64,000 bases of DNA from Bacilli bacterium (lineage in GTDB: Bacteria; Bacillota_I; Bacilli_A; ML615J-28; CAG-698). Where the stretch lies: positions 1,689 through 65,688 of the forward strand of contig JBFXJT010000003.1 in the NCBI GenBank assembly GCA_050174575.1, in the 5' to 3' direction. Shown one piece after another: positions 31,501-63,220 of this stretch (the stretch's first letter is position 1; the number at the start of each line of letters is the position of its first letter). The position numbers and the translations under genes are program-made. Under the pieces are notes generated by a model. That model made no database searches and was not told the DNA's origin. It saw nothing but the letters and a program-made list of their open reading frames with translations.

Positions 31501-31569
31501 AAGCTCCTTTTTGTTCATATTGTAACACAGGCAATTTAAAAAGAGAATAAGAATATTTTTAAAAATCAA

Positions 31570-31598
31570 TTGACTAGACATTTAGTTGGTGCTATAAT
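31570..31598 (+). promoter_or_regulatory. Consensus sigma-A promoter (TTGACT-17-TATAAT) with an operator-like TTGACTAGACA element over the -35
   Basis: The -35 and -10 boxes are read directly. The identical 11-mer TTGACTAGACA recurs at the promoter at 50031. Confidence 0.5.
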
Positions 31599-41797: not shown

Positions 41798-41809
41798 TTG
41801 TATATACAA
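41798..41809. promoter_or_regulatory. Perfect 12-bp palindrome TTGTATATACAA (GntR-family GT-N-TA-N-AC operator type) in the promoter region of the GHL10 gene
   Basis: Read directly. It lies ~17-28 nt upstream of a TATAAT at 41826-41831. Confidence 0.4.
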
Positions 41810-44074: not shown

Positions 44075-45030
44075 GTTTAGCAATTAATGTTATTCCAACA
44101 TTGGATAGTCAATTTATAGACAGCCGAAAATTTCAAAACGCAAAAATATTTTATGGAAATATTGAAAACGAGGTAAAACCAATTTTGGCTCCAAAATGTT
44201 TTCTTGGAGCGTGGTATCGCAAAGTTTTTTCATCCTTTGATTATTGGTTAGGGATGGAAGGGGTTATAAAATTAGGTGAATTTACCCCTGATAAGCTTCG
44301 CTTCAACCTTGATGGTAAAGGTCGTTATATGGATAACCCATCAATTTATATGGGAGGGAAAAGCGCCAAAGAAACTGATGCTGGCTTAAACCTCAATTTA
44401 AGTTATCTATCAGATGATACTAAAGACGACTTAGTTCTTTCTTCTCCAAAGCTAGCTTATCGACCATTTTGGCGTTATATTTACAATACTGCGACTGATG
44501 TATCAGGGAATGTTGAACGCCATGAAATTAATTCTTGGAACGTTCATAATCCTAGACATTTAGGAAATTATTATTTTCCCGGCGATGTTATCAAAATGAG
44601 CGTTTATAGTCCGATGAAAGACTACTTACAACTACGTATTGATGTTATTGAACCGACAACAAACCCAAAATATGTGAAAATAAGAAATGGATACAATTTA
44701 GAAAATAATCTTCCCACTTCATTTTTAAGTCCTTTATTTTTTTCTAAAGGACATGGTTATGAAAAAGCCGAATTTAAACGTGTAAATTCCATTGATCAAT
44801 ATGGTAACGAAGGCTTTGTAGCACAAAATACCAATGCCGAAGTATCGGAAGCTGTTTGGCAAGAGGTCTATTTGTACAAAGAAATCGACAAAACAATTTA
44901 CAAAATTCCTTTCTTACAAAGTCGCCAGACATCAATGATTTGCCCAAACACAGATGCTATTACTGTGAAAAATCATCCAGTTGATCCCACTGGAGAATCA
45001 GTTATCATTCATCCAGGAAAAAGGAATTAA
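44071..45030 (+). CDS. Unknown-family cytoplasmic protein, 319 aa, paralog B
   Basis: Paralog of the 36777-37736 product with the same conserved blocks. Its start overlaps the upstream stop as ATGA. Confidence 0.5.
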   Translation: MSLAINVIPTLDSQFIDSRKFQNAKIFYGNIENEVKPILAPKCFLGAWYRKVFSSFDYWLGMEGVIKLGEFTPDKLRFNLDGKGRYMDNPSIYMGGKSAKETDAGLNLNLSYLSDDTKDDLVLSSPKLAYRPFWRYIYNTATDVSGNVERHEINSWNVHNPRHLGNYYFPGDVIKMSVYSPMKDYLQLRIDVIEPTTNPKYVKIRNGYNLENNLPTSFLSPLFFSKGHGYEKAEFKRVNSIDQYGNEGFVAQNTNAEVSEAVWQEVYLYKEIDKTIYKIPFLQSRQTSMICPNTDAITVKNHPVDPTGESVIIHPGKRN

Positions 45031-45042
45031 AAGGCCGAACTT

Positions 45043-46545
45043 ATGAAAAAAATAGTTTATATTCCCCTTGATGAACGACCTTGCAACTATGATTTTCCTA
45101 ACGAGATTTTTCAAAATTCCCAAACAAATATTGTCATTCCCCCAATCAATATTATGGGAGACAAAAAAATGCCGGCTAACCATAATGCTTTAGAAGCTTT
45201 TCTCTTAAAAGAGACAAAGGATGCCGACGGTTTAGTCATTTCTTTAGACACACTAATTTATGGTGGGATTGTTCCTTCTCGTTTACATTATTTAGATGTT
45301 AGCGTATTAAAAGAGCGATTATTATTTATTGAGCAGATTAAAAAACAAACGCCAAAATTACCTATTTTTGCTTTCCAATTAATCATGCGTTGTCCCCAAA
45401 ATAATTCAAGCGATGAAGAACCAGAATATTACAAGCATTCTGGAAGAAGCATTTATTTAAATGGTTATTATCAAAACAAAAAACAATTAGGCATTATTAC
45501 CGAAGAAGAAGAAAAACATTGGAAAACATTGTCAATTGAAGATACCTATTTAAATGATTTTTTACAAAGACGATTTACAAATAAACAAATTAATATTTTT
45601 GCTCTCAATTTGCTTGAGAAAGAGATGATTGACTTTTTGGTTGTTCCTCAAGATGATGCGAGCGAATATGGGTATACAGCGATAGATCAAGTAGATATTA
45701 GAGAAATCATCCGTCAAAAGCAACTGATGTTAAAAGCATATATGTATCCAGGAGCCGATGAAGTCGGATGTATCTTATTGAGTCGTATGATTAACCATTT
45801 AGAAAATAAAAAGCCTGCTTTTTTTGTTAAGTATCCATCACCAACAACACCAATGGTGATTCCTTGTTTAGAGGATCGCTATGTCGATGTAACCATTAAA
45901 TATCATATTGCTTGTACGGGTGGAATTACTGTTCCTTCTTTAGCAGATGCAGACATTGTTTTACTAGCTTTCCTTGGAGCAACTAAAATGATTTCTCATC
46001 CAAACAATGAACCAAGTTTGGATGTTGATGTCATGTGTAACTTTACGGAAATGATGGAGTTTGCGGATTATGCAATCAAAAAGGGATATCCCGTTGCTAT
46101 TGGTGATTTAGTTTACCTTAATGGTGGTTCGCTAGATATCTTACATTTTTTAGAAGCAAAGCAACTAACAATGAAAGTTGCATCGTATGCTGGATGGAAT
46201 ACATCAAGTAATTCTTTAGGAACAGCCATTGCTCAAGCGATTCAGTTTTGGTACCAAGGAAATACTTTGTCACATCAAGCTTTCTTGATTAAACGCTATG
46301 TGGAAGACGTGGGCTATTGTGGAATTGTTCGAGCTGATGTTACAAAAGAACTTGCAAAACATCAAATGGATTATTTTAATGTTAATGAAAAAGATGGTAT
46401 TGCTGCCAAACTCGTCAATCATGGATTGCAAAAATTCATCCATGAACATTTAACAAGTATCAGTCACCAATTTACCGTTACAAAAGTAAACTTACCTTGG
46501 AAGCGGATGTTTGAAGTCGCTTTTGAAGTTCATTTGAAGGATTGA
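45043..46545 (+). CDS. Uncharacterised cytoplasmic protein, paralog B of the ~500 aa DUF4127-like family
   Basis: Carries the N-terminal 'KIVYIPLDERPCNYDFP', 'DTLIYGGIVPSRLH', 'QLIMRCPQ', 'FLVVPQDD', 'YMYPGADE' and 'AGWNTSSNSLGTAIAQA' motifs, all shared with paralog C. Confidence 0.5.
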   Translation: MKKIVYIPLDERPCNYDFPNEIFQNSQTNIVIPPINIMGDKKMPANHNALEAFLLKETKDADGLVISLDTLIYGGIVPSRLHYLDVSVLKERLLFIEQIKKQTPKLPIFAFQLIMRCPQNNSSDEEPEYYKHSGRSIYLNGYYQNKKQLGIITEEEEKHWKTLSIEDTYLNDFLQRRFTNKQINIFALNLLEKEMIDFLVVPQDDASEYGYTAIDQVDIREIIRQKQLMLKAYMYPGADEVGCILLSRMINHLENKKPAFFVKYPSPTTPMVIPCLEDRYVDVTIKYHIACTGGITVPSLADADIVLLAFLGATKMISHPNNEPSLDVDVMCNFTEMMEFADYAIKKGYPVAIGDLVYLNGGSLDILHFLEAKQLTMKVASYAGWNTSSNSLGTAIAQAIQFWYQGNTLSHQAFLIKRYVEDVGYCGIVRADVTKELAKHQMDYFNVNEKDGIAAKLVNHGLQKFIHEHLTSISHQFTVTKVNLPWKRMFEVAFEVHLKD

Positions 46546-46546
46546 T

Positions 46547-48490
46547 ATGAGACTCATAAAAAGTTTATTTAGTTTGATGCTTTTTTGTTGTGTGTTATTT
46601 TTTTGCTTTCATGTAAACACGAATGCTCATTTAATGAGTGTTGTAAAAGTAGAAACAATTAAAAGTGGAACAGTTACAGATGGTGTTTATTATGAAAGTT
46701 TCAAAGGTACTACAACGAATGATGCCCAAACTATTAGTAATCAACGTATTAGCTGGGTAAAAAAAGAAGCAAGCGCTAATGCAAAAATCGTTGCTTGGAG
46801 CAAACTAGGAAAAACAGGTATTGTTGGAGCTAATTTATTAGCATTAGCTCTTGATTTTGAAACGAACAATCCCGGATGGCATGTTTTAGCAGGAATCAAC
46901 GGAGATTATTATGATCCTACAACAAAAACACCAATCAATGCCCTTGTTCAACAAGGAGATGTTGTAAAAGCAACAAACTTTTCACTTTCACGTTATTTTT
47001 CTGTGGGGTTTTTAGATAATAGCCAAAGTTATATGTCTTCGAAAATAAACATATCCGAAAGTAAATATGCCCTAAGTATTTATGATGATACAAACACCCA
47101 AATTATATCGGAAGTACTGATTCAGGGGATAAATACTTTTCCAAGCGCAGGACAAACAAGCATATACTTTAATAGTCCATACCCATATCAGATTGCAAAT
47201 GCTCGTTATTTTCGTATTAACGATTTAGAACATGTAATTAATTACGGATCATATTTGTTTAAAGGAACTGTTTTTGAAGAAGTAGAAGATACTCAAACAG
47301 ACTTAAATGAATTAGTAATTGTGTCGTTGGATGAAGAAGTACAAACTTTATTGGCAAATAATCCCTCTATTCGGATTCAAAAACATTTAAAAGAAGCAAA
47401 CAATGGTTTAGAAAATGTTATTGGTGTTGGCAGTCAGCCATTAAAAGATGGTACTATCCTTGAATTTGGTGAAATCAATGACCAAAATATTGATTTCGCA
47501 AAGCAAAGAGCACCAAGATCAACGATTGGTTTTACTGAAAATGGTGATTTTGTGATGTCAACCATTGATGGCCGGCAAGCACTGATGGCTGGTGCTGATC
47601 TACGTGAAGAAGCGATGGTTATGGAATCACTTGGATGTAAGCAAGCTTTTAATTTAGACGGTGGTGGTTCTACACAACTAATTGTTAGAGAAAATAATCA
47701 ATTAGTAATGTTAAATTCGCCTTCCGAAATATATCGAAGTAATGCTAATGGGTTATTGCTTGTGGAACCAGATGTTTATGTGGATGCTTCCATTACCGAT
47801 TTAAACATTTCTTCTCTTCATTTACAGTATTCTTTAACATCAAGCGAAGAAGTTATCATCAACAATCACACTTTGTATTTGAATAATGTGGCGATTGATT
47901 CAACCAGTGAAAATTTAACTGTCGATTCACTCATTTCATCAGGAATAAATTACTTATCAATCGTTGTGAAATACGAAAAACAAGGAATAATGTATGAACA
48001 TTGTTTATGGAGTGAACGCATCAACCTTGCAAATTATGGTTTTGTAGAAGAAGTTATTAAAGTAAAACCCCATAATTTTCAAATCGAATTTGTGAAAGAT
48101 GACACAATCAACGGTTTTAGCGCTATTGTTAATTTTGATGATCCCGATAAGACACTCACAAAACTTTATGTAGCATATGCTGATAATCAAGAGATTGCCA
48201 TTAAAGATTACCGTGGATATGTTGTCGATTTTTACAATGTTGCTAATCCAAGTTCGTTTACATTTTCCATTATTTATTATTATCGGATAAATACCATAAA
48301 TGCTGTTTTCGAAACTTTTGAAACAACATTCCCCTATACTTATGAGGTAATTGATGATCCGATTATTGAACCAGAACCAGATCCGGAAGAAAAGCCAAAA
48401 GGATGTTTGCAACAAACAACCATCATGCCATTTTCGGCCTTGTTATTAGGAATATTTCTCTTGTGGAAAAAGGGACGCAAAAATGGTTAA
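46547..48490 (+). CDS. Secreted phosphodiester glycosidase family protein (NAGPA/uncovering-enzyme-like domain, DUF2233) with C-terminal beta-rich domains, an acidic Pro linker and a membrane anchor
   Basis: Carries a signal peptide and the hallmark 'FNLDGGGSTQL' motif of the phosphodiester glycosidase domain. The C-terminus is 'IIEPEPDPEEKPKGCLQQTTIMPFSALLLGIFLLWKKGRKNG'. Confidence 0.65.
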   Translation: MRLIKSLFSLMLFCCVLFFCFHVNTNAHLMSVVKVETIKSGTVTDGVYYESFKGTTTNDAQTISNQRISWVKKEASANAKIVAWSKLGKTGIVGANLLALALDFETNNPGWHVLAGINGDYYDPTTKTPINALVQQGDVVKATNFSLSRYFSVGFLDNSQSYMSSKINISESKYALSIYDDTNTQIISEVLIQGINTFPSAGQTSIYFNSPYPYQIANARYFRINDLEHVINYGSYLFKGTVFEEVEDTQTDLNELVIVSLDEEVQTLLANNPSIRIQKHLKEANNGLENVIGVGSQPLKDGTILEFGEINDQNIDFAKQRAPRSTIGFTENGDFVMSTIDGRQALMAGADLREEAMVMESLGCKQAFNLDGGGSTQLIVRENNQLVMLNSPSEIYRSNANGLLLVEPDVYVDASITDLNISSLHLQYSLTSSEEVIINNHTLYLNNVAIDSTSENLTVDSLISSGINYLSIVVKYEKQGIMYEHCLWSERINLANYGFVEEVIKVKPHNFQIEFVKDDTINGFSAIVNFDDPDKTLTKLYVAYADNQEIAIKDYRGYVVDFYNVANPSSFTFSIIYYYRINTINAVFETFETTFPYTYEVIDDPIIEPEPDPEEKPKGCLQQTTIMPFSALLLGIFLLWKKGRKNG

Positions 48491-50012
48491 AATTGTATAT
48501 ATTCCCCTTGATGAACGCCCTTGTAATTATCAGTTTCCTACAAAAATATTTAACCAAAAAGATGTTGAAATAATTACTCCACCCCAATCAATAATGGGAT
48601 ACAAAAAGCAACCGACTGATATAGATCAATTAAGCGATTGGTTAATGACGAACACAAAACAAGCTTATGGATTAGTTGTTGCCCTTGATACGCTGCTTTA
48701 TGGAGGAATTGTTCCTTCTAGATTGCATCAGCTTCCCCTTAAAATCCTTTTAAAAAGATTACAAATTTTAAAAAAACTGAAAAAACAAAATCCTGAACTT
48801 CAAATTTTTGGGTTTCAGTTAATCATGCGTTGTCCTCAATATAATTCAGCCGATGAAGAACCTGAATATTTTAAAAACTATGGAAAAAGCATCCACATGT
48901 TGGGATACTATTCTCACATGAAAGAGCTAGGAATTCTTCCCAAAAAAGATCAGGAAAAACTAAACAATATTTTTGTCCCACAACCATTTTTAGATGATTT
49001 TGTCAATCGAAGAAAAGTGAATCAGCAAATGAATATCGCAGCCTTAAAACTAGTTTCAGAAGGCATTATATCATTTTTCACTTTCCCTCAAGATGACTCA
49101 TCAAAATTTGGTTGGACAGCAAAAGATCAAATTGTTATTAGAAAGTCTATAAAAAAACGTCATTTAATGCATCTTGTTTATATGTATCCTGGAGCGGATG
49201 AAGCGGGGAGTGTCCTTGTTAGTCGCATGGTCTGTCAATTTAAACAAGTAGTTCCAAAAGTATTAATAAGATATCCCGGTCCAAGTTGCGCAAAAATCAT
49301 TCCCTCAATCGAAGACCGTTATTTAGATACTATGGTTAAATATCACGTTTTAGCATGTGGAGGAATTATCGTCGATTCTTTGAAAGAATGTGATGCTGTT
49401 GCTTTTATTAATGCACCGGCAGATTATATGCGTTCATCATTTTCTAGAGAGGCTCCTAAACATGGATTAGAAGTTTTAAGAAACATGGTTGAGGCAATGG
49501 AGTTTTTGGATTATGCCCGTCACCAAAACAAAGTCATAATCATCGGTGATATTACTTATGGAAACGGTAGCGATCTTGAAATCTTCCATTTACTATCACA
49601 AAAACAAATGACATTTGATTTGGCAGGTTTTGGAGGATGGAATACAGCCTCAAATGCGATTGGTCAGGCTATTGCCATGGGATTTTCATTCTTAATAAAC
49701 GGTTGCACAGAAAGCCATTTGAACTTTTTAGTAAGTCGTTATATTGAGGATATTTGTTATTGTGGTTATGTTCGTCAAATCGTTATGAAAAATTTTTTAC
49801 CAAAGCATCCACAACTTGATTATTTTAATGTAATGGAAAAAAATGGACTTGTTGCTCAAGAAGTTGCAAGACAATTAAACTTATTCATCAAAAAGAACAT
49901 GCCTCAATTGTGGGACCATGGAAAAATCATCAAAGTTGAATTACCGTGGAAAAGGATGTACGAAATCGATTTAGAAGCTATTTATCAAGAGGATAATAAA
50001 AAAAGCATGTAA
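48483..50012 (+). CDS. Uncharacterised cytoplasmic protein, paralog C of the ~500 aa DUF4127-like family
   Basis: 'VKIVYIPLDERPCNYQFP' and 'GGWNTASNAIGQAIAMG' are present. It is collinear with paralog B (~45-50% identity), and its start overlaps the upstream stop. Confidence 0.5.
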   Translation: MVKIVYIPLDERPCNYQFPTKIFNQKDVEIITPPQSIMGYKKQPTDIDQLSDWLMTNTKQAYGLVVALDTLLYGGIVPSRLHQLPLKILLKRLQILKKLKKQNPELQIFGFQLIMRCPQYNSADEEPEYFKNYGKSIHMLGYYSHMKELGILPKKDQEKLNNIFVPQPFLDDFVNRRKVNQQMNIAALKLVSEGIISFFTFPQDDSSKFGWTAKDQIVIRKSIKKRHLMHLVYMYPGADEAGSVLVSRMVCQFKQVVPKVLIRYPGPSCAKIIPSIEDRYLDTMVKYHVLACGGIIVDSLKECDAVAFINAPADYMRSSFSREAPKHGLEVLRNMVEAMEFLDYARHQNKVIIIGDITYGNGSDLEIFHLLSQKQMTFDLAGFGGWNTASNAIGQAIAMGFSFLINGCTESHLNFLVSRYIEDICYCGYVRQIVMKNFLPKHPQLDYFNVMEKNGLVAQEVARQLNLFIKKNMPQLWDHGKIIKVELPWKRMYEIDLEAIYQEDNKKSM

Positions 50013-50030
50013 ACCTTTACAAACTCTTCT

Positions 50031-50059
50031 TGACTAGACAAGTAATTAAAGATATAATA
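50031..50059 (+). promoter_or_regulatory. Consensus sigma-A promoter (TTGACT-17-TATAAT) carrying the same TTGACTAGACA element as the 31570 promoter
   Basis: Read directly. It is followed by an AAGGAGG RBS and the ATG at 50089. Confidence 0.5.
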
Positions 50060-50088
50060 GAGTTATCATTAGACAAAGGAGGAAACTA

Positions 50089-53000
50089 ATGTCAAACATT
50101 AAAAAATTTCTATTTTTTCTATGTTTAATCATTGTGGCTTTTGCTGTCACTGCTTGTGGAACCGATGATATCGAGAACCCAAGTTTAGTGATCAATTCCC
50201 CAACGATTACGCATGTTGTAAACGAGGATGTTGATTTATTAGAAAACATCACGGCAACAGATAATGAAACAGTGGCTGATGACATTGTCATTGAAATATC
50301 CGATTTAGGTGGATATGACAAGACTAAAGTCGGCACGTATACAGTAACAATCAAGGCTACTGATAAAGCAGGAAACTCTATCACAGCAGACATTACTGTT
50401 ACAGTTACTGAAGAGCCTGTTTTAGATACTGAAGCACCAACGCTTACAATTGGCAAACCGAGCATTACTCATGAAATTAATGCGACTGTCGATTTATTAG
50501 CTGATGTCAGTGCAACTGACAACATCGATGCTGCTAGCGAAATTATAATTAGCATTTCTAATTATAATGGCTATGACAAGAGCGTCGAAGGGACTTATGA
50601 AATTACAGTAAAAGCTACAGATACTAGTGATAATTTCACTACCGGAACAATTACTGTAATTGTAAAAGAAGATATTTTACCACCAATGGTTACTGGTGCT
50701 GTTACAACAGTTACACAATTGGCTGGCGAAACAGTTGACCTTACTAAAGGGTTAGCCGGTGTTGATAATAAAGATGGCATAAATGTCATTTTTACAGTTA
50801 CCAATTTTAAAGATTACAATAAAGATGTACCAGGAACATACACGGTTGAAATTACTGCTTCCGATTCTTCCGACAACGAAGGGCTTCCGTTTAACCGAAC
50901 AGTTGTTGTAGAAGAAAGTTATGCTCGTGCAGAAATGACATCCTTTGCAGGCGATACTATTCGTTATGAAGCGTTATATAATCCTCAAATAATGAACAGC
51001 AATACCGCAACAGGTTACAATGCAGCATATGATGGTCATTATGTCAATGTTCTTTCTAAAGAATATCTTGAATGGATTATTGAATATGCTCCTGAACGTT
51101 TAGGCGCAGGTGTTGGTTGGAGTGTTATAGCTGTAACTGATGCTGATGAAAAGATTGTCTATGTTCGTCATTGGAATAGTGGAGAAGCTTACCATGATGA
51201 AGCAGGTAATCTAGTTTCTGCAAAATCTGTTAACTGGTCAACAGGAACAATCCGTACTTGGACTGAAGATGTTGGTGGTCAAGTTGTCGGCATGTCAAAT
51301 GCGAAATACAGTTCTGCAGAAATGGGCATGATGATGGCTAATATTAATGAATGGGTTCCAACTGGCGGACACGTCTTTATCTTTATCAATTGGTCAACAA
51401 TCGGTGAAGACGAAGGCGGAAATGTTGTTGGAATTGCCAACTCAGCAACAATGCCACGATCCATGGGTGCAAACTACATTATGTCAAGCGATGAAAATGG
51501 CGATGATGTCATGGATTATGCTATTGGTCGTACATTAAAAATCTTAGATAAACAATTAACTGATGAAACAATTCGTCAAAGTTTTGATGCAGCTAATCCA
51601 TTCCCAATTATTTCGATTCCAAGTGTTAGATATATAACATCAACGGGAATTTGGAAAAACCGCTATACAGAAACTGTTTATCTTGATGAATATAATCAAG
51701 AAAATCCTTTCAATCCTTTAAATGGCGTTACTGCCAATGATGGAAAAGGTAATGACATCACATCAACAGTTTCTTATAAACTATTCCGTTATCAAACAAC
51801 AGAAACTGCTTATGGATTAATGACTTCTCTTCCAATTGATGATCCTCGTTGGGCACAATATTTCGAAGATGCAGAATTATGGAAGAAAGAAGAAAATGAA
51901 GTAACATTAGAACAAGCAATGGTTGATGCTAATAATGATTACTATTTTGTTGTTCAATATCAAGTTACTGCTAACGAATTTACGGATACAGCTTATAAAT
52001 TAATTCAGATTAAAGCTTCAGTTCCAGATTATATTGATTTATATGGAACTACTGATTCGGTATTTTCTGAGGCAATGGGGATTCAACAACGTTTAGACAT
52101 GAATCCAAATCTTGAAGACTTTGGTTCGATGACTGCAACAGAAAAAGGTATTATTTATACAGCTTCCGCATTTAAAGATTTAACTACTTTCCCTGCTTTG
52201 GAAAAAGGTGTTATTGTTGTAGTTGATCCTTTCTATCGCATTCAATTAATCAGAATTGTTAATGGTATTGCTTTTGAAATGGATGCCACTGGCACAGCCA
52301 AAACGACCGATTTAACTTGGACTGCAAGTCAAATGTTTAGTGGGTTAGATACATTGGTTCCTGCTGGCGGGTATGTCATCGTTTATCCAGAAGGATTAGA
52401 TGGTTCCGTTTTAACAAAGGCCTTAAAAGCATACTATGATTATAATTATCAATCAGGTTTATTAACAGAAGCCCTTCCAACAAACGGAAAAGTTTCAATC
52501 GAAATGATCATTAAAGAAGTAAAAGAAGTATCCACATTCGTCGTTAATGATGTTGCTCCACAAATCTCCATCAATAACACTGATACTAATATTTTTGTTG
52601 TGGAAAACAACAAAGCATCGTTAGTATTCTCATCATCTGGTGGTGGCGCTGGATTCCGTTTGGATACTGGAAAAGCTTATTATTATACAAAAGCTGAATA
52701 CGCTGTTTTATCACAAAATACTGATGTTGTTACTTCATTTACAACACTAAGCCCGAACAAAGGTGTTCCTTGGTTCCGCGATGGCGTTATTATCGTTGTT
52801 GATTCAACTGGCAAGTTTGTACAAGCCCGTGTTATGACAACGAGCGCAGCTGCTGAAGTCCGTGTTGACGGAACAGTTGTTTATGGTAATGCTGCCGTTG
52901 TTGCCCTTAGTGAAACTGCGAAAACTGCTGCTGGAGAAGCTAACCTAACTTGGGATTTAGTTCTTCCAAACGCTGCTAACACTGTTGCTCATGGGCCACT

Positions 53001-55473
53001 TGCTGATATTCAATCAGTTATCCCTGATGGAGGAGCTTTCTATATTCTTCCAGGAACAGCCAATACTGCTGTTCGTAATTATGCTATTTCCTTAGTTTGG
53101 AACACTGCTTATCCAGGAAGTGGTATCATTGTTGATGCTACTTTAGCTGAACAACCTGTAGGTAATCCAAGTCCAGCAACAAATGGCTTTGATTTCACAA
53201 ACTATAATGCAGCATACTTTGCAGGATTAACATTTAAAGTTCAGTTCGTTTCAACCATAACTGCTAAGCCAGCAAAAATTGCTCGTCCTGTAGCGACAAT
53301 TACAGATAACGTTTTAGCTTGGGAACAAGTAGAAAACGCTGGAAGTTATGATGTTTATGTTGATGGTATCTTAAAAGCCTCAAATGTTGGCGAGTTATTA
53401 ACAGAAACGACAACATTTAACTATGATTTACGTTTATTAAAATTAGATGATCAAGTTCATACAATTCAAGTACGTGCTATTACAGCGAATGCTCAAACTG
53501 CATCAACTTCAGTATTATCCGATGCTGTTACAGTTCAATTTATCGCTTTAACAACACCAGCAAACTTAGTTGTCACTGATACTGTACTTTCGTGGGGTGT
53601 TGTCGATAAAGCATCAACTTATGAAATTTATGTTAATGATGTTTTAGTTGGCACATCGGAAACCAACAGTTTTGATCTAAAAGACTTCTTTGGATCATCT
53701 ACAAAAGATGTTCAAGTTAAAGCATTACCGGGTGATGTTGACAAAATGTATGTTGCTTCGCCATTATCAGACAAATTCCCATTTGGTGAACCAACAACAA
53801 CTTATTTAACATTAACACTTGAAACACAACATGTTACTTATACAACAGTTGACGAGTGGATGGTAAAACGTAATATTACGATTCCTAATGGTGGTTTCTC
53901 AGGTTCAAATGAAATCTTCTTAATTGAAGATGCTTATGCCTTTACAACATTTGCAACACCAACATCCTTAATTACTGTTAATGGAACGTTCTTGTTGTTT
54001 GGTGCTGATGGCAAATTAAAAGCTATTCGTACAATTATTGCTAATCATCAATGGTTAGCAACTAACGATCAATTAGTTAATAATGGTTGGACAACTGTTT
54101 CAACATATACAAATGGTCAAGTAAAAGTATCCGAAGTTACTCCATTATTAGCTGAAGGCGATTTCATCTTAGTGACAACTGCGGGAACAACAAAACAACC
54201 AGGTGCAACATTAAATGCCCGTGATTTCCTAGCTTATCACTTCATGGGTTCATGGGATACAACGATTGCAAGTAACGAAATTTGGCGCAAGACAATCGAT
54301 TTATTCTCCAATCCATCAACTGTTACTTACAAATTATCATCTTACCCTGTAACTTATTACTTAGCTTTAACTTTAGAAAGTCAACATGTTACTTATACAA
54401 CTGTTGATGAGTGGATGGTAAAACGTAATGTTACAATTCCTAATGGTGGTTTCTCAGGTTCAAATGAAATTTTCTATATTGAAGATGCTTTTGCCTTTAC
54501 AACATTTGCAACACCAACATCCTTAATTACTGCTAATGGAACGTTCTTGTTGTTTGGTGCTGATGGAAAATTAAAAGCTGTTAGAACAATCATCAATAAC
54601 CATCAATGGCTTGCAACAAATGATCCATTAGTTAACAATGGTTGGACAACTGTTTCAACATATACAACTGGTCAAGTAAAAGTATCCGAGGTTACCCCAT
54701 TATTAGCTGAAGGCGATTTCATCTTAGTGACAACTGCGGGAACAACAAAACAAGAGGGCGCAACATTAAATGCCCGTGATTTCTTAGCTTATCATTTCAT
54801 GGGTTCATGGGATACAACGATTGCTAGTAATGAAATTTGGCGCAAAACGATTGATCAATTCATCAATCCAACAGCCGTAACTTATTCTGTTGTTGGACGC
54901 CCATACATTAACAAATTAGCTTTAACCCTTGAAAACCAACAAATTGCTTTTACAACTGTCGATGAATGGATGGCAAAACGCAATATTGTTGTTGCTAGTG
55001 GTGGTTTTTCTGGATCAACCAATATTTTCTATATTGAAGATGCATATGCTTTTTCAACTTTTGCAACACCAACAGCTCTAATAACTGTTAATGGAACATT
55101 CTTACTATTTGGCGCTGATAACAAGTTAAAAGCAGTGCGCACTGTTCTTAATAACCATCAATGGTTAGCTACCAATGACCCGTTAGTTAATAACGGTTGG
55201 ACAATTGTCTCAACCTATACTTCAGGTCAAGTAAAGGTTCAAGAAATTACTTCCTTCTTAGCTGAAGGTGACTACATTATTCTATCGAACAATGTAACAT
55301 CTAAACAAGTAGGAGCAACCTTGACACCAAGAGATTTCTTAGCTTATCATTTCATGGGTCCATGGGATACTGCTGTTGCAAGTAACGAAATTTGGCGCAA
55401 GACAACTTTTGAAACATTTATTAATCCTTCAACTGTTACTTTCGCAATTAAGAAAGTTGTTGTAACTTTCTAA
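50089..55473 (+). CDS. Giant surface lipoprotein (1794 aa) with three N-terminal Ig-like domains (DUF5011-type), a central multi-domain region, two FN3-like domains and three C-terminal tandem ~183 aa repeats
   Basis: Lipobox 'AVTACG'. Three ~95 aa Ig-like modules each carry 'VDLL...ATDN' and 'GTY.VT.KATD..GN'. A recurring '(I/V)P.GG' beta-sandwich-like module appears ~6 times, and the C-terminus is a triplicated domain. Confidence 0.7.
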   Translation: MSNIKKFLFFLCLIIVAFAVTACGTDDIENPSLVINSPTITHVVNEDVDLLENITATDNETVADDIVIEISDLGGYDKTKVGTYTVTIKATDKAGNSITADITVTVTEEPVLDTEAPTLTIGKPSITHEINATVDLLADVSATDNIDAASEIIISISNYNGYDKSVEGTYEITVKATDTSDNFTTGTITVIVKEDILPPMVTGAVTTVTQLAGETVDLTKGLAGVDNKDGINVIFTVTNFKDYNKDVPGTYTVEITASDSSDNEGLPFNRTVVVEESYARAEMTSFAGDTIRYEALYNPQIMNSNTATGYNAAYDGHYVNVLSKEYLEWIIEYAPERLGAGVGWSVIAVTDADEKIVYVRHWNSGEAYHDEAGNLVSAKSVNWSTGTIRTWTEDVGGQVVGMSNAKYSSAEMGMMMANINEWVPTGGHVFIFINWSTIGEDEGGNVVGIANSATMPRSMGANYIMSSDENGDDVMDYAIGRTLKILDKQLTDETIRQSFDAANPFPIISIPSVRYITSTGIWKNRYTETVYLDEYNQENPFNPLNGVTANDGKGNDITSTVSYKLFRYQTTETAYGLMTSLPIDDPRWAQYFEDAELWKKEENEVTLEQAMVDANNDYYFVVQYQVTANEFTDTAYKLIQIKASVPDYIDLYGTTDSVFSEAMGIQQRLDMNPNLEDFGSMTATEKGIIYTASAFKDLTTFPALEKGVIVVVDPFYRIQLIRIVNGIAFEMDATGTAKTTDLTWTASQMFSGLDTLVPAGGYVIVYPEGLDGSVLTKALKAYYDYNYQSGLLTEALPTNGKVSIEMIIKEVKEVSTFVVNDVAPQISINNTDTNIFVVENNKASLVFSSSGGGAGFRLDTGKAYYYTKAEYAVLSQNTDVVTSFTTLSPNKGVPWFRDGVIIVVDSTGKFVQARVMTTSAAAEVRVDGTVVYGNAAVVALSETAKTAAGEANLTWDLVLPNAANTVAHGPLADIQSVIPDGGAFYILPGTANTAVRNYAISLVWNTAYPGSGIIVDATLAEQPVGNPSPATNGFDFTNYNAAYFAGLTFKVQFVSTITAKPAKIARPVATITDNVLAWEQVENAGSYDVYVDGILKASNVGELLTETTTFNYDLRLLKLDDQVHTIQVRAITANAQTASTSVLSDAVTVQFIALTTPANLVVTDTVLSWGVVDKASTYEIYVNDVLVGTSETNSFDLKDFFGSSTKDVQVKALPGDVDKMYVASPLSDKFPFGEPTTTYLTLTLETQHVTYTTVDEWMVKRNITIPNGGFSGSNEIFLIEDAYAFTTFATPTSLITVNGTFLLFGADGKLKAIRTIIANHQWLATNDQLVNNGWTTVSTYTNGQVKVSEVTPLLAEGDFILVTTAGTTKQPGATLNARDFLAYHFMGSWDTTIASNEIWRKTIDLFSNPSTVTYKLSSYPVTYYLALTLESQHVTYTTVDEWMVKRNVTIPNGGFSGSNEIFYIEDAFAFTTFATPTSLITANGTFLLFGADGKLKAVRTIINNHQWLATNDPLVNNGWTTVSTYTTGQVKVSEVTPLLAEGDFILVTTAGTTKQEGATLNARDFLAYHFMGSWDTTIASNEIWRKTIDQFINPTAVTYSVVGRPYINKLALTLENQQIAFTTVDEWMAKRNIVVASGGFSGSTNIFYIEDAYAFSTFATPTALITVNGTFLLFGADNKLKAVRTVLNNHQWLATNDPLVNNGWTIVSTYTSGQVKVQEITSFLAEGDYIILSNNVTSKQVGATLTPRDFLAYHFMGPWDTAVASNEIWRKTTFETFINPSTVTFAIKKVVVTF
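53800..55470 (+). repeat. Three tandem intragenic repeats of ~550-560 bp (R1 53800-54349, R2 54350-54907, R3 54908-55470)
   Basis: R1 and R2 are ~90-95% identical at the nucleotide level, with identical runs exceeding 50 nt. R3 is ~75% identical. Each encodes a copy of the 'VDEWMVKRN..IPNGGFSGS...LAEGDFILV...ARDFLAYHFMG.WDT' domain. Confidence 0.85.
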
Positions 55474-55542: not shown

Positions 55543-56205
55543 ATGAAATTTGAAAAATTATTTAATAGCAAGTTCTATATGTTTTTTGAATGGCTATATC
55601 GGATGATTATCATTAATTTGTTATTTATTTTATGCTCCGTACTTGGTCTTATTGTCTTTTCGATTGTCCCTTCGTTTATTGCAATGATTACTATTATAAA
55701 ATCGTTGTCTACGGAAACCTCATTTCCGATTGTTCGACCTTTTTTTCGGATTTTCTTAAAACACTTTAAACAAAATATAGTTTTATCATTAGTTTTTTTA
55801 GTGCTTACTTTGATGTTTTTGTTTAATACTTATTTTTTCTTTCTCGCTTGGCAAGAATATCAAGCCTTAATCAATGAAATAATTTTTAATTTTACGCTAG
55901 TATTAGATGGAATTTTAATTGTATCATTCATTAATGCTTTATTTATTAGGGTTTATTTCCCTAATTTAAACACTTTAAAAACACTAAAATATGCCATAAT
56001 TTTGTTAAGAGCAATGCCAATGCAATTCTTGTTGGTGTTCTTATTGTTAATTGTCATGGCTGTTTTACTTTATTATTTCCCTTACTTTTTAATTATTATG
56101 GGATTTTCAATCGTCATTTATATTGTCAATTTATTAATAAGAACAAAATATTCCAAGCTTGTTGCAACGGGAGTAATCTCGCTTCAAGCACAAGATTATT
56201 TATAA
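55543..56205 (+). CDS. YesL-like membrane protein (DUF624), second copy
   Basis: The N-terminal 'FFEWLYRMIIINLLFILCSVLGLIVFSIVPSFIAMITII' pattern and TM layout resemble the 33251 product. Confidence 0.55.
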   Translation: MKFEKLFNSKFYMFFEWLYRMIIINLLFILCSVLGLIVFSIVPSFIAMITIIKSLSTETSFPIVRPFFRIFLKHFKQNIVLSLVFLVLTLMFLFNTYFFFLAWQEYQALINEIIFNFTLVLDGILIVSFINALFIRVYFPNLNTLKTLKYAIILLRAMPMQFLLVFLLLIVMAVLLYYFPYFLIIMGFSIVIYIVNLLIRTKYSKLVATGVISLQAQDYL

Positions 56206-56230
56206 AAAGGACTTGTGAAAGGAAGGACTT

Positions 56231-59125
56231 ATGAAGAAAAAAATCGTCATTATTACGCTTTTAATATTGTTAGCGTTAAGCGGATATTTGTTAATTGATT
56301 TTTTAGATGTTGAAGCAAGTGAACCGCGTCCTTATGTCGGGTCCATTTATGAAAGCGTGCTGGTTAATAGTTCTTCTTATGAAGAATATTTGCAAAACAT
56401 TGATGAAGATGTATCCGATGTTGCTTTTTCGCAAGCAGCCACTCAAGGATATACTTATTCACTAGATAACGCCAATGTCCTGCCATATGTTCTTACAATT
56501 GATGATCAAGAAGGGTTATATATCCCCGAAATTGGTGACGTATCTTGGACGGTCAATGTTCCCAAAGCAGGACAATACACCATTTCATTGACATATTATC
56601 CAATTGAAGGACGAAGTTCAGAAATAAACCGTGGGTTAAAAATAAACGGTGAATATCCTTTTTCAGAAGCATCATCATTTGTCTTACCAAGAATTTGGGA
56701 GGATGCTTTTGATGTTTCTACAAGAAGAATTGACGGAAAACATGATCAAAAACCCGCACAGATTGAAAAGCCAAGATGGAACGTATTTCCTATACGTGAC
56801 ACCGCTGGTTTTTACAACGGGAAAAGTTATTTCTTCTATTTAGAACAAGGTGCTTCCACAATTACTTTAACTGGAAATAAAGAACCAATGATTTTATCCT
56901 CGTTTCAATTTCAACCGGTTGTTAACGAAAAAACATATCTTGAATTGCTTTCTTACTACGAGGAACAAAACTATGAAAAAGTAAGTAGTGAAGAAATGAG
57001 CAATGTCGGTTATATAAAGGAACAAGGTGAAACAACTTTTGAAAAATCAACACCAATTTTATCACCTGTTGCTAATTGGAGTAGTTATAAGGTTGATCCA
57101 TATGTCCAGTTCATTACAAGATACAACACTGTTGGTGGAACAACTTGGCGTGTTGCTGGCGATTTTGTTAGTTGGGAAGTTGAAGTCCCTAAATCGGGGT
57201 TGTATCAGCTAACATTAAAAGTGCTTCAGAATTATCGTCAGGGAATGTACTCAACAAGAATTTTATCGATTAACGGTGAAGTGCCTTTTAGTGAATGCCG
57301 AAACATTCAATTTAAGTATGATAGCGATTGGCAGAATGTAACTTTAGGCAATGACGATGGTGCTTATTGGTTTTATTTTGAACAAGGCAAAAATACAATT
57401 ACATTGGAAGCAACAATTGGCGTTTATGCGCAAATAGTGAGAGTTGCGGAAGAAACCATTGCTACATTAAACTCCTTATACCGTAAGGTAGTCATGATTG
57501 CGGGAGCTAATCCCAATGAATATCAAGACTATTTGCTAGAAGAACGGATCGATGGTTTATTCGAAATGATCTCTTCTAGTGCAGATAATTTACAAGCATG
57601 CATCGACAGCATCGTTACTATTGCTGGCGAAAGAAGTGCGCTTGTTTCCAGCTTTGAACGAACACTCTATCAAATGCGACAATTTGCGAAAAGCGAACGT
57701 AATATCCAAATTGGTTTGAAAGAACTTGATGATAATATTGCTGCTTTGGGGACATGGGTCATGACCATTTCCGAACAATCTTTAGCAATCGATTGTTTTT
57801 ATATTCATGGTGAACATGTGAAATTGCCCAAAGCAAGCACAAACTTTTTCCAAAAACTTTGGCATGAAATTGTCATGCTTTTCGGAAGTTATGGTGCAAA
57901 CACATCTTTAGAAAGCAGTGTTGAAACCGATGGGGAAACAATTACTGTTTGGATATCTTCTGGCCGTGATCAATCACAACTCTTAAGACAATTAATTGAT
58001 GAATCATTTACTTTACAAAAAAATATTAATGTTAGTTTAAAATTAGTTTCGCAAGCAGCACTTTTACCGGCAACATTATCGGGGAATGGTCCCGATGTTG
58101 CCATTGGTGTTGGTCAAAACATCCCTGTTAACTGGGGGATCAGAAATGCCCTATTGGATTTAACTCAATTTACGGATTTTGAAGAAGTACAAACTTGGTT
58201 TCATGATAGCGCCATAACACCGTTTATTTTTCAAAACCATGTTTATGCATTACCAGATACTCAAGATTTTTTAGTATCGTTTGTGAGAACGGATATTATG
58301 GCTGAATTGAACATGACTGTCCCTGATTCTTGGGATGAAGTCATCGATACGCTTCCACAACTACAAAGGCAATATCTTGATTATTATTTACCTAATTCCA
58401 AGGGCGCATTAAGTTCGTTATTGTATGCAATGGTTGCTCAAAAAGGTGGTCGTTTATACGATGACGAAGGAACAAAAACATTGCTGACAGAAACAAATGC
58501 TACAGAAGCTTTTATTGATTTCACAACGTTTTTTAGTGACTATGGTTTTGAAGTGAGTGCCAACTTCTCTAATCGTTTTCGTAGTGGTGAAATGCCAATA
58601 GGCGTTGCGAATTTTTCGCTATACAATACACTATCGGTATTCGCTCCAGAAATTCGTGGTCATTGGGAATTTAGACCTTTACCTGGTTACAAAACGAATG
58701 AAGAAATTGCTAACCAAACAACATCAACTGTTACAGGAACAGTTATTTTAGGAAACACAAAGCATCCTAATGCTAGTTGGGAATTCTTGAAATGGTGGTT
58801 GGGTGAAGAAGCACAAGCGGGATATGCTCGAGGCATGGAAGCCATTCTAGGGGCTGCAGCTCGTTATCCAACAGCTAATTTAACGGCTTTTGAAAAATTG
58901 CCATGGTCAACAAAGGATTATCAATTGTTGACTTCCCAAAGAGAAAAGGCTGTTGGTGTTCCAACATTCCCTGGTGATTACATTGTCGGCCGTTATATCG
59001 ATAATGCTTTTCGGGCTTCAATCAATGATAATATCAATCCTCGTGACAGTTTATTTGAATATTGTAAAAAAATAAATATCGAACTTGAAAGAAAACGTCA
59101 AGAATTCGGTTTGAATGGAGAGTAA
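56231..59125 (+). CDS. Large (964 aa) membrane-anchored extracellular solute-binding protein: N-terminal duplicated beta-sandwich (carbohydrate-binding-like) domains fused to a family-1 sugar SBP
   Basis: The N-terminal TM/signal anchor is followed by two homologous ~150 aa modules ('W.V.VPK.G.Y.L.......R.L.INGE.PFSE...') and then a C-terminal ~420 aa SBP_bac_1-like domain. It is immediately followed by LplB/LplC-type permeases. Confidence 0.65.
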   Translation: MKKKIVIITLLILLALSGYLLIDFLDVEASEPRPYVGSIYESVLVNSSSYEEYLQNIDEDVSDVAFSQAATQGYTYSLDNANVLPYVLTIDDQEGLYIPEIGDVSWTVNVPKAGQYTISLTYYPIEGRSSEINRGLKINGEYPFSEASSFVLPRIWEDAFDVSTRRIDGKHDQKPAQIEKPRWNVFPIRDTAGFYNGKSYFFYLEQGASTITLTGNKEPMILSSFQFQPVVNEKTYLELLSYYEEQNYEKVSSEEMSNVGYIKEQGETTFEKSTPILSPVANWSSYKVDPYVQFITRYNTVGGTTWRVAGDFVSWEVEVPKSGLYQLTLKVLQNYRQGMYSTRILSINGEVPFSECRNIQFKYDSDWQNVTLGNDDGAYWFYFEQGKNTITLEATIGVYAQIVRVAEETIATLNSLYRKVVMIAGANPNEYQDYLLEERIDGLFEMISSSADNLQACIDSIVTIAGERSALVSSFERTLYQMRQFAKSERNIQIGLKELDDNIAALGTWVMTISEQSLAIDCFYIHGEHVKLPKASTNFFQKLWHEIVMLFGSYGANTSLESSVETDGETITVWISSGRDQSQLLRQLIDESFTLQKNINVSLKLVSQAALLPATLSGNGPDVAIGVGQNIPVNWGIRNALLDLTQFTDFEEVQTWFHDSAITPFIFQNHVYALPDTQDFLVSFVRTDIMAELNMTVPDSWDEVIDTLPQLQRQYLDYYLPNSKGALSSLLYAMVAQKGGRLYDDEGTKTLLTETNATEAFIDFTTFFSDYGFEVSANFSNRFRSGEMPIGVANFSLYNTLSVFAPEIRGHWEFRPLPGYKTNEEIANQTTSTVTGTVILGNTKHPNASWEFLKWWLGEEAQAGYARGMEAILGAAARYPTANLTAFEKLPWSTKDYQLLTSQREKAVGVPTFPGDYIVGRYIDNAFRASINDNINPRDSLFEYCKKINIELERKRQEFGLNGE

Positions 59126-59128
59126 AAG

Positions 59129-60085
59129 ATGAATAAAACACTTATTACTCATACACAAAAGCAAGCAGAAAGACGAGCTCGGCGACAAGAATTTTGGAAA
59201 CAAGTTAAGAAAAACAAAGTTTCTTACACGATGATTGCCCCCTTTATAATTATATTCTTTACATTCACCGTTCTTCCGGTATTGATGAGCTTTTTCTTAA
59301 GTTTTACATCTTTTGATATGCTTCAGGCACCAAAATTTCTTGGTCTTGATAATTATATTAATCTGTTTTTAAACGATGAAGTTTTTTTAATTGCAATTAA
59401 AAACACCTTTATATTAGCAGTGATTACCGGTCCTGTTTCTTATGTTTTAGCGTTTTTATTTGCCTGGCTAATCCATGAATTACCGAAAAAGATCCGTTGG
59501 TTTATGACCTTGGTTTTTTATGCTCCGTCAATCAGCGGTAGTGCTTATTTACTTTGGCAGCTAATCTTTTCTTCCGATATGTATGGCGTTTTAAATGCTT
59601 TCTTAATTAATTTAGGCATTATCAATGCACCAATTCTTTGGCTAGAATCACCTCAATATGCACTTATTATCTTAATCATTGTTCAACTTTGGTTAAGTTT
59701 AGGCGTAACTTTCCTTGCTTTCATTGCCGGATTACAAACTGTTGATCGCACTTTGTATGAAGCGGCAGCCATTGATGGTTTACGTAACCGTTGGCAAGAA
59801 TTATGGTTTATTACACTTCCTCAAATGAAATCACAATTGATGTTTGGTGCTGTAATGCAAATTACAAATGCCTTGGGGATTGCCTCTGTTTCGATTAATT
59901 TACTCGGATTTCCATCTGTGGAATATTCCGGACACACAATTGTCACCCATTTAATGGATTTTGGATCAACCAATTCCACCCGTTTAGAAATGGGATATGC
60001 TTCAGCAATTGCGACCGTCCTTTTCTTTATCATGTTGGGTTCCAACCTAATTGTTCAAAAAATAATTAGGAGGGTCGGATCATGA
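59129..60085 (+). CDS. Sugar ABC transporter permease, LplB-like (CUT1)
   Basis: LplB-type N-terminus and the EAA loop 'EAAAIDGLRNRWQELWFITLP'. Confidence 0.8.
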   Translation: MNKTLITHTQKQAERRARRQEFWKQVKKNKVSYTMIAPFIIIFFTFTVLPVLMSFFLSFTSFDMLQAPKFLGLDNYINLFLNDEVFLIAIKNTFILAVITGPVSYVLAFLFAWLIHELPKKIRWFMTLVFYAPSISGSAYLLWQLIFSSDMYGVLNAFLINLGIINAPILWLESPQYALIILIIVQLWLSLGVTFLAFIAGLQTVDRTLYEAAAIDGLRNRWQELWFITLPQMKSQLMFGAVMQITNALGIASVSINLLGFPSVEYSGHTIVTHLMDFGSTNSTRLEMGYASAIATVLFFIMLGSNLIVQKIIRRVGS

Positions 60086-61038
60086 GTAAAAAGAAAGCAA
60101 TGATGATGACCGAACAAGAGCGAAGTCAAGTCATCCAAGATCTTAAAGTTCAAGAATTAGAATGGTACAAACAAAAACGAAAATTTAAAAAATACCGCCG
60201 AGTTCGACTGAGTCGATCAATTTGGGGAGACATTTTTGTTGTTTTTGTGTTAGTACTATTTGGAACGTTCAGTGCCTATCCACTAATTTATACAATTTCG
60301 AATTCCTTAAAAGGGCTTGATGAAATTTTTGTTTTTCCACCACGTTTATTTCCGAGAAATATAACGTTTCGTAATTTTATCGATTTATTCAATTTAATTG
60401 GTAATACGCAAATTCCTATTTCTCGTTATTTTATCAATACATTAACGATTACTTTATTTGGGACAGCAGGACATGTTTTACTGTCTTCTCTTTGCGCTTA
60501 TCCTTTATCAAAGCACCGTTTTCCTGGGCGCCATTTAATCAACCAATTAGTTGTTTATTCATTAATGTTTTCAGCAGCCGTTACGGCTATTCCATCTTAT
60601 ATGATTATCAGTTGGCTTGGATTAATTGACTCGCAATTAGCCATCATCATCCCAGCGTTTGGGTTTACTTTAGGCTTGTTTTTAATGCGTCAATTTATGA
60701 ATGTCATTCCCAATGAATTACTAGAAGCAGCAAAAATTGATGGTGCTAACGAATATCAAATCTTTTTTAAAGTCGTTATGCCACTTGTGAAACCTGCTTG
60801 GTTAACTTTAATTATTTTGTTATTCCAACAATTATGGGGAACTGATGGTGGATCGTATATCTTTACAGAAAATTTAAAACCGTTAAGCTATGCTTTAGGG
60901 CAGATTGTTGCTGGCGGTGTTGCCCGAACAGGAACAGCAGCAGCTGTTACCGTCATCATGCTGATTGTGCCAATTTCCGTATTCATTTTCAATCAAACAA
61001 AGATGCTGGAAACAATGGCCCATTCAGGACTTAAGTAG
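60082..61038 (+). CDS. Sugar ABC transporter permease, LplC-like (CUT1)
   Basis: EAA loop 'EAAKIDGANEYQIFFKVVMP' with 6 TM helices. Confidence 0.8.
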   Translation: MSKKKAMMMTEQERSQVIQDLKVQELEWYKQKRKFKKYRRVRLSRSIWGDIFVVFVLVLFGTFSAYPLIYTISNSLKGLDEIFVFPPRLFPRNITFRNFIDLFNLIGNTQIPISRYFINTLTITLFGTAGHVLLSSLCAYPLSKHRFPGRHLINQLVVYSLMFSAAVTAIPSYMIISWLGLIDSQLAIIIPAFGFTLGLFLMRQFMNVIPNELLEAAKIDGANEYQIFFKVVMPLVKPAWLTLIILLFQQLWGTDGGSYIFTENLKPLSYALGQIVAGGVARTGTAAAVTVIMLIVPISVFIFNQTKMLETMAHSGLK

Positions 61039-61047
61039 GAGGGACTT

Positions 61048-62538: not shown

Positions 62539-63220
62539 TGATTTAAAAAAAGTCAAGCACTTTTCCAACTTTAACTTTAAACAAGCTTTTAAAAAGTTTA
62601 TCGATGAAGCTTTTGCGAAACCCTTTTATTTAATTACTCATCCCATAAAAGGGTTTGACGAATTTAAAAGGGAAAAAACATCGCGAACGGATATTGCCAT
62701 CTTTTATCTTGTTATGATGATCATTACCCAAATTATTGCTTACAATGAGAACGGTTTTTTAATTAATCGGCAAAACCCCGATGACTTCAACTTGTTTCTA
62801 ACAATTGCTTTGGTCATTTTTCCGGTATTAATCGGCACAATAGGCAATTGGTCATCAACCGTTTTAATGGATGGTAAAGGAACAATGAAGGAAATATTCC
62901 ATGTTATATGTTATGCCTTCTTTCCTTATGTGTGGCTTGGTTTGTTTTCAACGCTTATCAGCAATATTATAACGATTGATGAAATTATTTTCTTTAGTTT
63001 TTTTAATGGGTTAGGAGCATTTTTATTAGTTTACATGTTGTTTTTTGGACTGATGGGGATTCATGAATATGGTTTATTGAAAACAATCTTCATGATTATT
63101 GCAACAGTTGTTGCCATTGCTGTCATCTTATTTATCATGTTGCTTTTCTTGTCCTTAATCCAACAAGTTTATTCCTACATTGCTTCGGTATATCGTGAGT
63201 TTGTGATGAGGTTTCTATGA
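62531..63220 (+). CDS. Yip1-domain-like polytopic membrane protein
   Basis: An AGGAGG RBS precedes ATG 62531. It has 5 TM helices and an N-terminal cytoplasmic segment. The family assignment is tentative. Confidence 0.4.
   Translation: MNNDLKKVKHFSNFNFKQAFKKFIDEAFAKPFYLITHPIKGFDEFKREKTSRTDIAIFYLVMMIITQIIAYNENGFLINRQNPDDFNLFLTIALVIFPVLIGTIGNWSSTVLMDGKGTMKEIFHVICYAFFPYVWLGLFSTLISNIITIDEIIFFSFFNGLGAFLLVYMLFFGLMGIHEYGLLKTIFMIIATVVAIAVILFIMLLFLSLIQQVYSYIASVYREFVMRFL

Follow-up and report, generated by a model that had tools for sequence, protein, structure and literature searches.

A rare module superfamily in a predicted triple-repeat surface lipoprotein heading a conserved glycan-import locus of a probable Izemoplasmatales-like bacterium

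The window analyzed here is a 64,000-nucleotide stretch of contig JBFXJT010000003.1 (positions 1,689 to 65,688, forward strand) from assembly GCA_050174575.1 of a Bacilli bacterium; the gene described occupies positions 50089-55473 of the window, and it and all of its features lie on the + strand. Translation yields the 1794-residue open reading frame (ORF) that a first-pass annotation had reported at these positions, and from its sequence the product is predicted to be a very large lipid-anchored cell-surface protein. Behind the Cys23 lipobox come three immunoglobulin (Ig)-like domains; module M1 is next, then a fourth, probably Ig-like domain, M2, M3, a pair of FN3 domains and finally three tandem C-terminal repeats, R1 to R3. 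Judged from sequence profiles, the six M and R copies sort into three classes that have diverged from one another: M1, M2/M3 and R1-R3. The module superfamily they constitute is genuine, rare and uncharacterized, and is found in a conserved glycan-import locus.

The pattern [IV]PxGG occurs five times in the protein, against 0.04 occurrences expected from shuffling, and the copies that had been noted ahead of the C-terminal repeats are present: WVPTGGHVFIFINW (aa 422) in M1 (residues 283-522; 50935..51654), LVPAGGYVIVYPEG (aa 756) in M2 (residues 644-812; 52018..52524) and VIPDGGAFYILPGT (aa 977) in M3 (residues 813-1045; 52525..53223). The center was divided into M1, Ig-like domain, M2 and M3 by alignment with homologues; hhalign places M1 as a divergent member of the superfamily and, together with AlphaFold2 (AF2) secondary structure, M3 as an M2 paralogue with insertions. 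Profile-profile comparison links M1, M2, M3 and R into one superfamily and thereby defines six homologous modules, so that an earlier estimate of about six copies of one unrecognized module is borne out. With profiles of window-proximal homologues, M2 and M3 aligned at E 5e-15, with weaker links to M1 and R, while Ig-like and FN3 control profiles gave E 0.16-0.68. Profiles drawn from 15 species genomes paired M2 with M3 at 99.3% probability (E 5e-20), and the merged M2/M3 profile then matched M1 at E 1.5e-6 and R at E 4.6e-5. With distant homologues added, M aligned to R at 96.5% probability (E 8e-10) and to M1 at 95.9% (E 5.6e-9), all control pairs in this comparison lying at E 0.13-0.84; the fourth Ig-like domain (523-643) served as a negative control in these tests. 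The order of structural elements in AF2 models is likewise equal in the four module types, comprising strand-helix, a four-strand meander, a variable insert, and helix-strand-helix.

The register of these alignments corrects one point of the original description. An equivalence between the central VPxGG motif and IPNGGFSGS of the repeats (R residues ~30-38) had been proposed, and was rejected: in the hhalign register the central "VP(T/A/D)GG + strand" pairs with LAEGD(F/Y)I of R, at residues ~120-129 (LAEGDFILV). Across 86 R units, K77, G99-W100, G123-D124, R144 and R166 are nearly invariant. The M modules keep a different polar set, and polar invariants differ between the module classes generally. 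Conservation within the protein peaks in M1 (64-92% identity across the 15 species genomes), where many Tyr, Asp, Asn, Arg, Glu and Trp residues are invariant.

An AF2 model of the R2 unit, computed with 13 repeat units, has a predicted local distance difference test score (pLDDT) of 93.9 and a predicted template modeling score of 0.90; it depicts a mixed alpha/beta domain, not the beta-rich module previously supposed from the letters. Searches up to E = 10 gave no match of M1, M2, M3 or R in Pfam, NCBIfam or PDB sequences, and no carbohydrate-binding module (CBM) model matched them at the same limit, nor did any match the distant homologues. No family, catalytic or otherwise, was recognized in residues 283-1045 and 1235-1794 with Pfam, NCBIfam or PDB sequences; searches of PDB sequences with the whole protein and with profiles of R and M1 matched nothing beyond an Ig domain, and a Foldseek search of PDB with the R model returned nothing significant. 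A six-frame hmmsearch of the window found no M or R modules outside this gene. By these comparisons the M/R module appears to be rare, with no convincing relative among known families or solved structures.

The C-terminal array comprises R1 (residues 1235-1419; 53791..54345), R2 (residues 1420-1604; 54346..54900), the unit modeled above, and R3 (residues 1605-1794 plus the stop codon; 54901..55473), the three units being delimited by repeat detection. At the DNA level these appear as direct repeats of 555-nt period starting at 53802, 54357 and 54912. The three tandem units of the first-pass annotation thus stand, with a period of 185 rather than ~183 residues and a span of 53791-55470 rather than 53800-55470. 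R1 and R2 share 88% of their residues and 86.7% of their nucleotides in ungapped alignment, short of the >90% DNA identity first claimed; R3 is more distant from both (~70% protein and 70-71% DNA identity), and the longest exact run common to repeat copies is 57 nt. The R1/R2 codon differences comprise 30 synonymous and 22 nonsynonymous changes, from which we conclude that both units are under purifying selection.

Such arrays raise the question of whether the triple C-terminus arose in assembly, by a mis-join or by collapse or expansion of copy number, a concern voiced at the outset. In favor of this, the related metagenome-assembled genome (MAG) L004 carries a 100-N gap inside its repeat array. 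Here, however, 13-30% of DNA positions differ between copies, one intact reading frame runs through all three, and each of ten independent, complete orthologues in the genomes of other species contains exactly three R units. Between divergent species, each of the three units is most similar to its counterpart at the same position in other genomes (the nearest relative of the R3 described here is R3 of the closest orthologue), and this positional orthology indicates that the triplication is old. An assembly artefact is effectively excluded, and for purposes of annotation the triple repeat may be taken as genuine and conserved. Pairs of units have been homogenized in some lineages, R1 with R2 here and in L003, R1 with R3 in L006 and L011. 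In L004 the 100-N run (~10760-10860 of MAG CAZYFI010000021) cuts the called orthologue to 1505 aa and accounts for its apparent 1.2 R copies; either that stretch was masked, or assemblies can break at the repeat arrays of this family. The fixed number of three units hints, from sequence comparison, at a cooperative or pseudo-trimeric assembly.

The remaining domains are of familiar kinds. Three tandem Ig-like domains (approximately residues 26-109, 113-195 and 196-280; 50164..50928) were delineated by self-BLAST, Pfam and PDB comparisons: domains 1 and 2 share 51% identity (E 8e-20) and both match domain 3, and the PDB 2kpn Ig-like domain is matched at E 2.5e-4. As to their designation as DUF5011-type, PF16403/DUF5011 scores 21.6 bits, under its cut-off of 27, and InlK_D3, with a cut-off of 25, reaches 32.7 bits over three stretches; homologues have precomputed PF16403 matches. 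Overlooked earlier was a fourth domain (residues 523-643; 51655..52017), probably also Ig-like and containing a helical insertion, for which AF2 secondary structure is mostly beta (strand pLDDT 70-90), Pfam gave no match, and the segment "GVTANDGKGNDIT" seems to resemble the N-terminal Ig domains. Two FN3 domains (residues ~1051-1135 and ~1149-1230; 53224..53790) adopt the seven-stranded beta-sandwich fold matching solved FN3 domains. The overall anatomy first proposed, a lipoprotein with Ig-like and FN3 spacers and a triplicated C-terminal unit, was largely right. The three N-terminal repeats and the two domains before R1 appear to be of the same kind as known bacterial surface spacers (PF16403/DUF5011, InlK D3/D4 and FN3); these families cover only ~30% of the protein and leave the M and R modules unexplained.

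Relatives are few. A word-indexed search of 5.8 billion proteins retrieved three relatives of the repeats and eight of the center, and an exhaustive HMMER search of 1.84 billion cluster representatives retrieved 43 proteins at E <= 1e-3. With the M1 alignment, orthologues were found in 15 GTDB species genomes, nearly all of them MAGs labeled Izemoplasmatales, Tenericutes, Bacilli or Bacillales; three are labeled otherwise, two as "Bacteroidales" and one as "Thermoplasmata archaeon". Izemoplasma are described as free-living and wall-less (PMC8397711, PMC10470597), as is the order Izemoplasmatales (PMC8397711), and the host of the window is probably an Izemoplasmatales-like, putatively wall-less bacterium. 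Distant homologues have a simpler Ig-M-FN3x2-R(-M) architecture, and more distant members contain one or two R units (P0005, P0010, P0016, P0020). Nearly all R-bearing proteins also have M modules and have no enzyme domain; ten distant relatives scanned showed no enzyme domain fused to the modules. A second R subtype, with the signature "DRWGHEWN..DGWTTNAGGW", takes the place of the window's subtype in several orthologues, as three copies in P0013, P0015 (= L016), L009, L010, L013 and L017 and as one copy in P0005 and P0006.

The genes surrounding the lipoprotein gene are conserved along with it. Upstream in the window are genes for a GH84 NAGidase, NanE, a GNAT-GntR/UTRA regulator, a GHL10 protein, a 319-aa protein of no known family, a DUF4127 protein, NAGPA and a second DUF4127 protein; downstream are DUF624, a 964-aa binding protein, two permeases, an NHL/TPR protein and Yip1. 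The order GHL10-unk319-(GH84)-DUF4127-NAGPA-lipoprotein-DUF624-SBP-permeases (SBP, solute-binding protein) is kept in the 15 species genomes, to contig limits, with NHL/TPR, Yip1 and DUF5696 coming next in loci that extend far enough. Nothing points to a mobile island, and the cluster is syntenic across these related genomes. To contig limits, the downstream cassette comes after each M/R lipoprotein gene examined, in the window (55543-64000) and in L001, L002, L018, L019 and L022, and includes a ~960-aa SBP with a long N-terminal extension, a ~490-aa NHL/TPR protein and a ~870-aa DUF5696 protein. All of DUF624, SBP, two permeases, NHL, Yip1 and DUF5696 are present in L019; L018 has the same set except for a called DUF624 gene; and in L022 the contig ends after DUF624, SBP and permeases. 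This DUF624-SBP-permeases-NHL/TPR-Yip1-DUF5696 cassette appears to be an undescribed import system. Some distant homologues of the lipoprotein also adjoin genes for NAGPA, a ~300-aa unknown protein, GHL10, NanE, GH84 or GH38. NAGPA enzymes release N-acetylglucosamine (GlcNAc) from GlcNAc-1-phosphodiesters by means of a DGGGS motif (PMC13474241), and the neighboring NAGPA protein has NLDGGGST; Cwp19, a peptidoglycan lytic transglycosylase, belongs to the GHL10 family (PMC6016235, PMC5765458). A literature search on Slr0280, DUF4127 and DUF5696 returned nothing useful.

The head of the gene bears predicted expression and export signals. In the 76-nt intergenic gap before it lies a promoter-like site, TTGACT-17 nt-TATAAT (50029..50058), the best in the region, which matches the consensus at 11 of 12 positions and so falls one short of the perfect promoter first described; the two hexamers are kept upstream of the orthologue in 15 of 15 loci, while their flanks diverge. 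The -35 hexamer falls inside CTTGACTAGACAAG(T), an imperfect palindrome that is conserved and, by its sequence, makes a candidate operator, and this overlap of promoter and operator-like palindrome suggests substrate-responsive regulation. Among the loci compared (L001 and L003-L017, upstream of the orthologue), the palindrome 14-mer TTGACTAGACAAGT (50029-50042) is kept in 15 of 15 and identical in 11; it has one exact copy in the whole window and resembles GntR/HutC (NagR/DasR-type) operators. Similar sites occur at 31570-31581 and 41798-41809, the intergenic heads of two other transcription units of the cluster, and their presence at three such heads suggests a regulon of the GNAT-GntR/UTRA regulator (40124-41767). 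That regulator is itself unusual in makeup, two GNAT acetyltransferase-like regions being fused to a GntR DNA-binding domain and a UTRA effector domain. The ribosome-binding site AAAGGAGGA (50075..50083) lies 6 nt before the ATG, as previously read, and its GGAGG core is kept in orthologous loci. Residues 1-23 (50089..50157) form a predicted lipoprotein signal peptide (N-terminus MSNIKKFLFFLCLIIVAFAVTAC, followed by G) in which V-T-A-C fits the lipobox pattern [LVI][ASTVI][GAS]C, with Cys23 predicted to be lipidated; an equivalent (A/G)C lipobox occurs in every relative examined whose N-terminus is present, in agreement with the initial classification as a lipoprotein. There is no terminator-like site 3' of the gene, so that its transcript probably extends into the DUF624 and transporter genes that follow.

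With moderate confidence we propose that the lipoprotein is a non-catalytic surface capture protein of the cassette it heads, feeding the adjacent importer. Synteny with an ATP-binding cassette (ABC) sugar importer and GlcNAc-related enzymes, retained even for distant homologues, fits this idea of substrate capture; it is from this context that we infer that the protein binds a ligand, that it does not catalyze, and what its substrate is. The Ig-like and FN3 domains would serve as spacers displaying the six modules, whose three classes may have diverged in specificity, as their class-specific polar invariants would fit. The lipoprotein would hold a polymeric glycan at the membrane while neighboring enzymes (the NAGPA-type phosphodiester alpha-GlcNAcase, the GHL10 enzyme, the GH84-type beta-GlcNAcase and the DUF4127 proteins) trim it; the ABC system would import the products, and NanE would then feed N-acetylmannosamine (ManNAc)-6-phosphate into metabolism. 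A plausible target is a polymer containing GlcNAc or ManNAc and phosphodiester links, such as the wall teichoic acid-peptidoglycan debris of other bacteria. Several observations weigh against this proposal. The modules are alpha/beta, unlike most known CBMs; the strong conservation of M1, with its many invariant polar residues, would also fit an active site; the AF2 model of M1-M3 is of only moderate confidence (mean pLDDT 66.5); and the substrate is suggested solely by the annotations of neighboring genes.

The point about M1 leads to an enzymatic alternative, which we regard as rather unlikely, wherein one or more module classes, most probably M1, would be a new glycoside hydrolase, lyase or phosphodiester-cleaving domain that attacks the polymer at the cell surface. 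The invariant Tyr, Asp, Asn, Arg, Glu and Trp residues of M1 and the K, D, R and R retained in R units would accord with this, as would a weak hhalign hint aligning the Rw profile to the NAGPA family near its DGGGS region (E 0.042). Yet the modules show no significant sequence or profile similarity to catalytic families or to the neighboring NAGPA, GH84, GHL10 and DUF4127 proteins, they have no DGGGS motif, and their polar invariants are not common to the classes; tandem triplication of a catalytic domain would also be unusual. A role in docking, by which the modules would bring the secreted enzymes together with the giant binding protein and the NHL, Yip1 and DUF5696 proteins in a surface complex after the manner of a cohesin-type scaffold rather than bind glycan, is quite improbable: constant co-occurrence of the same seven-gene cassette (to contig limits), repeated modules with spacer domains between them and the fixed three R units of orthologues would suit a scaffold, but no matching docking module emerged when M and R profiles were compared by hhalign and hmmsearch with all window ORFs and neighbor families, and homologues with a single R unit retain the same cassette.

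We similarly think it improbable that the protein serves a wall-less cell as structural surface coat or adhesin, resembling the large surface lipoproteins of mollicutes and with no direct part in nutrition. A large lipoprotein with Ig-like and FN3 domains under a strong, conserved promoter, in a genome whose relatives are labeled Izemoplasmatales or Tenericutes, would accord with such a coat, Izemoplasma being described as wall-less (PMC8397711). Against it stand the gene order of the ABC importer cassette, kept even where the R module is distantly related and the architecture differs, the recurring linkage to GlcNAc-related enzymes, and the operator-like palindrome overlapped by the promoter, with the substrate-responsive regulation that it suggests. 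Capture of substrate for the importer remains the reading we prefer. A bolder reading, which we offer tentatively and consider doubtful, is that the M/R module represents a new fold family recognizing or even cleaving phosphodiester-linked GlcNAc/ManNAc glycopolymers and that, with the cassette of DUF624, giant SBP, NHL, Yip1 and DUF5696, it forms a surface machine, as yet undescribed, that lets wall-less Izemoplasmatales use other bacteria's cell walls as food.

Comparison with known systems places the protein nearest in organization to the surface glycan-capture lipoproteins of polysaccharide utilization loci, both the SusD/SusE/SusF type of Bacteroidota and those linked to ABC importers in Gram-positive loci. 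Like these it is, by prediction, lipid-anchored at the cell surface; it is multi-modular with Ig/FN3-like spacers, has no recognizable catalytic domain, and is encoded beside a transporter and glycosidases. It differs in that import is by an ABC system whose binding protein has ~960 aa, rather than by SusC/TonB, and in its alpha/beta modules, which match neither SusD (TPR-like) nor SusE/F (beta-sandwich) in sequence or fold. Triple-repeat wall-binding units, 3x SLH or the 3x CWB2 of Clostridioides difficile Cwp proteins such as Cwp19, offer another likeness: three tandem repeats kept as a set, conserved basic and aromatic residues and, here, linkage to a GHL10 (Cwp19-type) gene; the lipoprotein has no Pfam match or fold of SLH (PF00395) or CWB2 (PF04122). 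Nor does it have the PF09992 match and DGGGS motif that define the NAGPA/DUF2233 phosphodiester glycosidases (PDB 6ozd BPSS2145, 5h3k Slr0280, 3ohg, 6pku), carrying instead P[TAD]GG, PNGGFSGS and EGD. The notion that the modules are degenerate NAGPA domains was considered and found unsupported (hhalign E 0.45 with the neighboring NAGPA protein, 0.04-0.39 with a 16-member family), and is retained as no more than a weak lead.

If the proposed capture function is correct, the M/R modules would add to glycan-recognition modules a domain superfamily for which there is no Pfam or NCBIfam model or convincing solved-structure analogue, and would mark a conserved, wholly uncharacterized import cassette in free-living wall-less bacteria. 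Its partners include families with little or no known bacterial function (DUF4127, DUF5696, DUF624, bacterial NAGPA and the 319-aa protein), and a defined surface binder would provide an experimental handle on the substrate of the whole cluster. The cluster would also bear on the use of polymeric necromass by Izemoplasmatales, known mainly as DNA foragers.

Other features of the window merit record. Three DUF4127 paralogues are encoded in the cluster, at 30031-31581 (- strand), 45043-46545 and 48483-50012, and the 319-aa protein has two paralogous genes (36777-37736 and 44071-45030) with no Pfam or NCBIfam match; members of this family also neighbor NAGPA and the lipoprotein gene in distant loci. 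Ahead of a second pair of ABC permease genes, a sugar-binding protein gene is apparently split into ORFs at 31682-32377 (231 aa) and 32393-33229 (278 aa), of which only the first matches SBP_bac_1, and this may reflect a frameshift, a pseudogene or a sequencing error. Near the start of the window, an OppC-type oligopeptide permease (759-2756; OppC_N and BPD_transp_1) contains inserted RCC1-like beta-propeller repeats, an unusual fusion.

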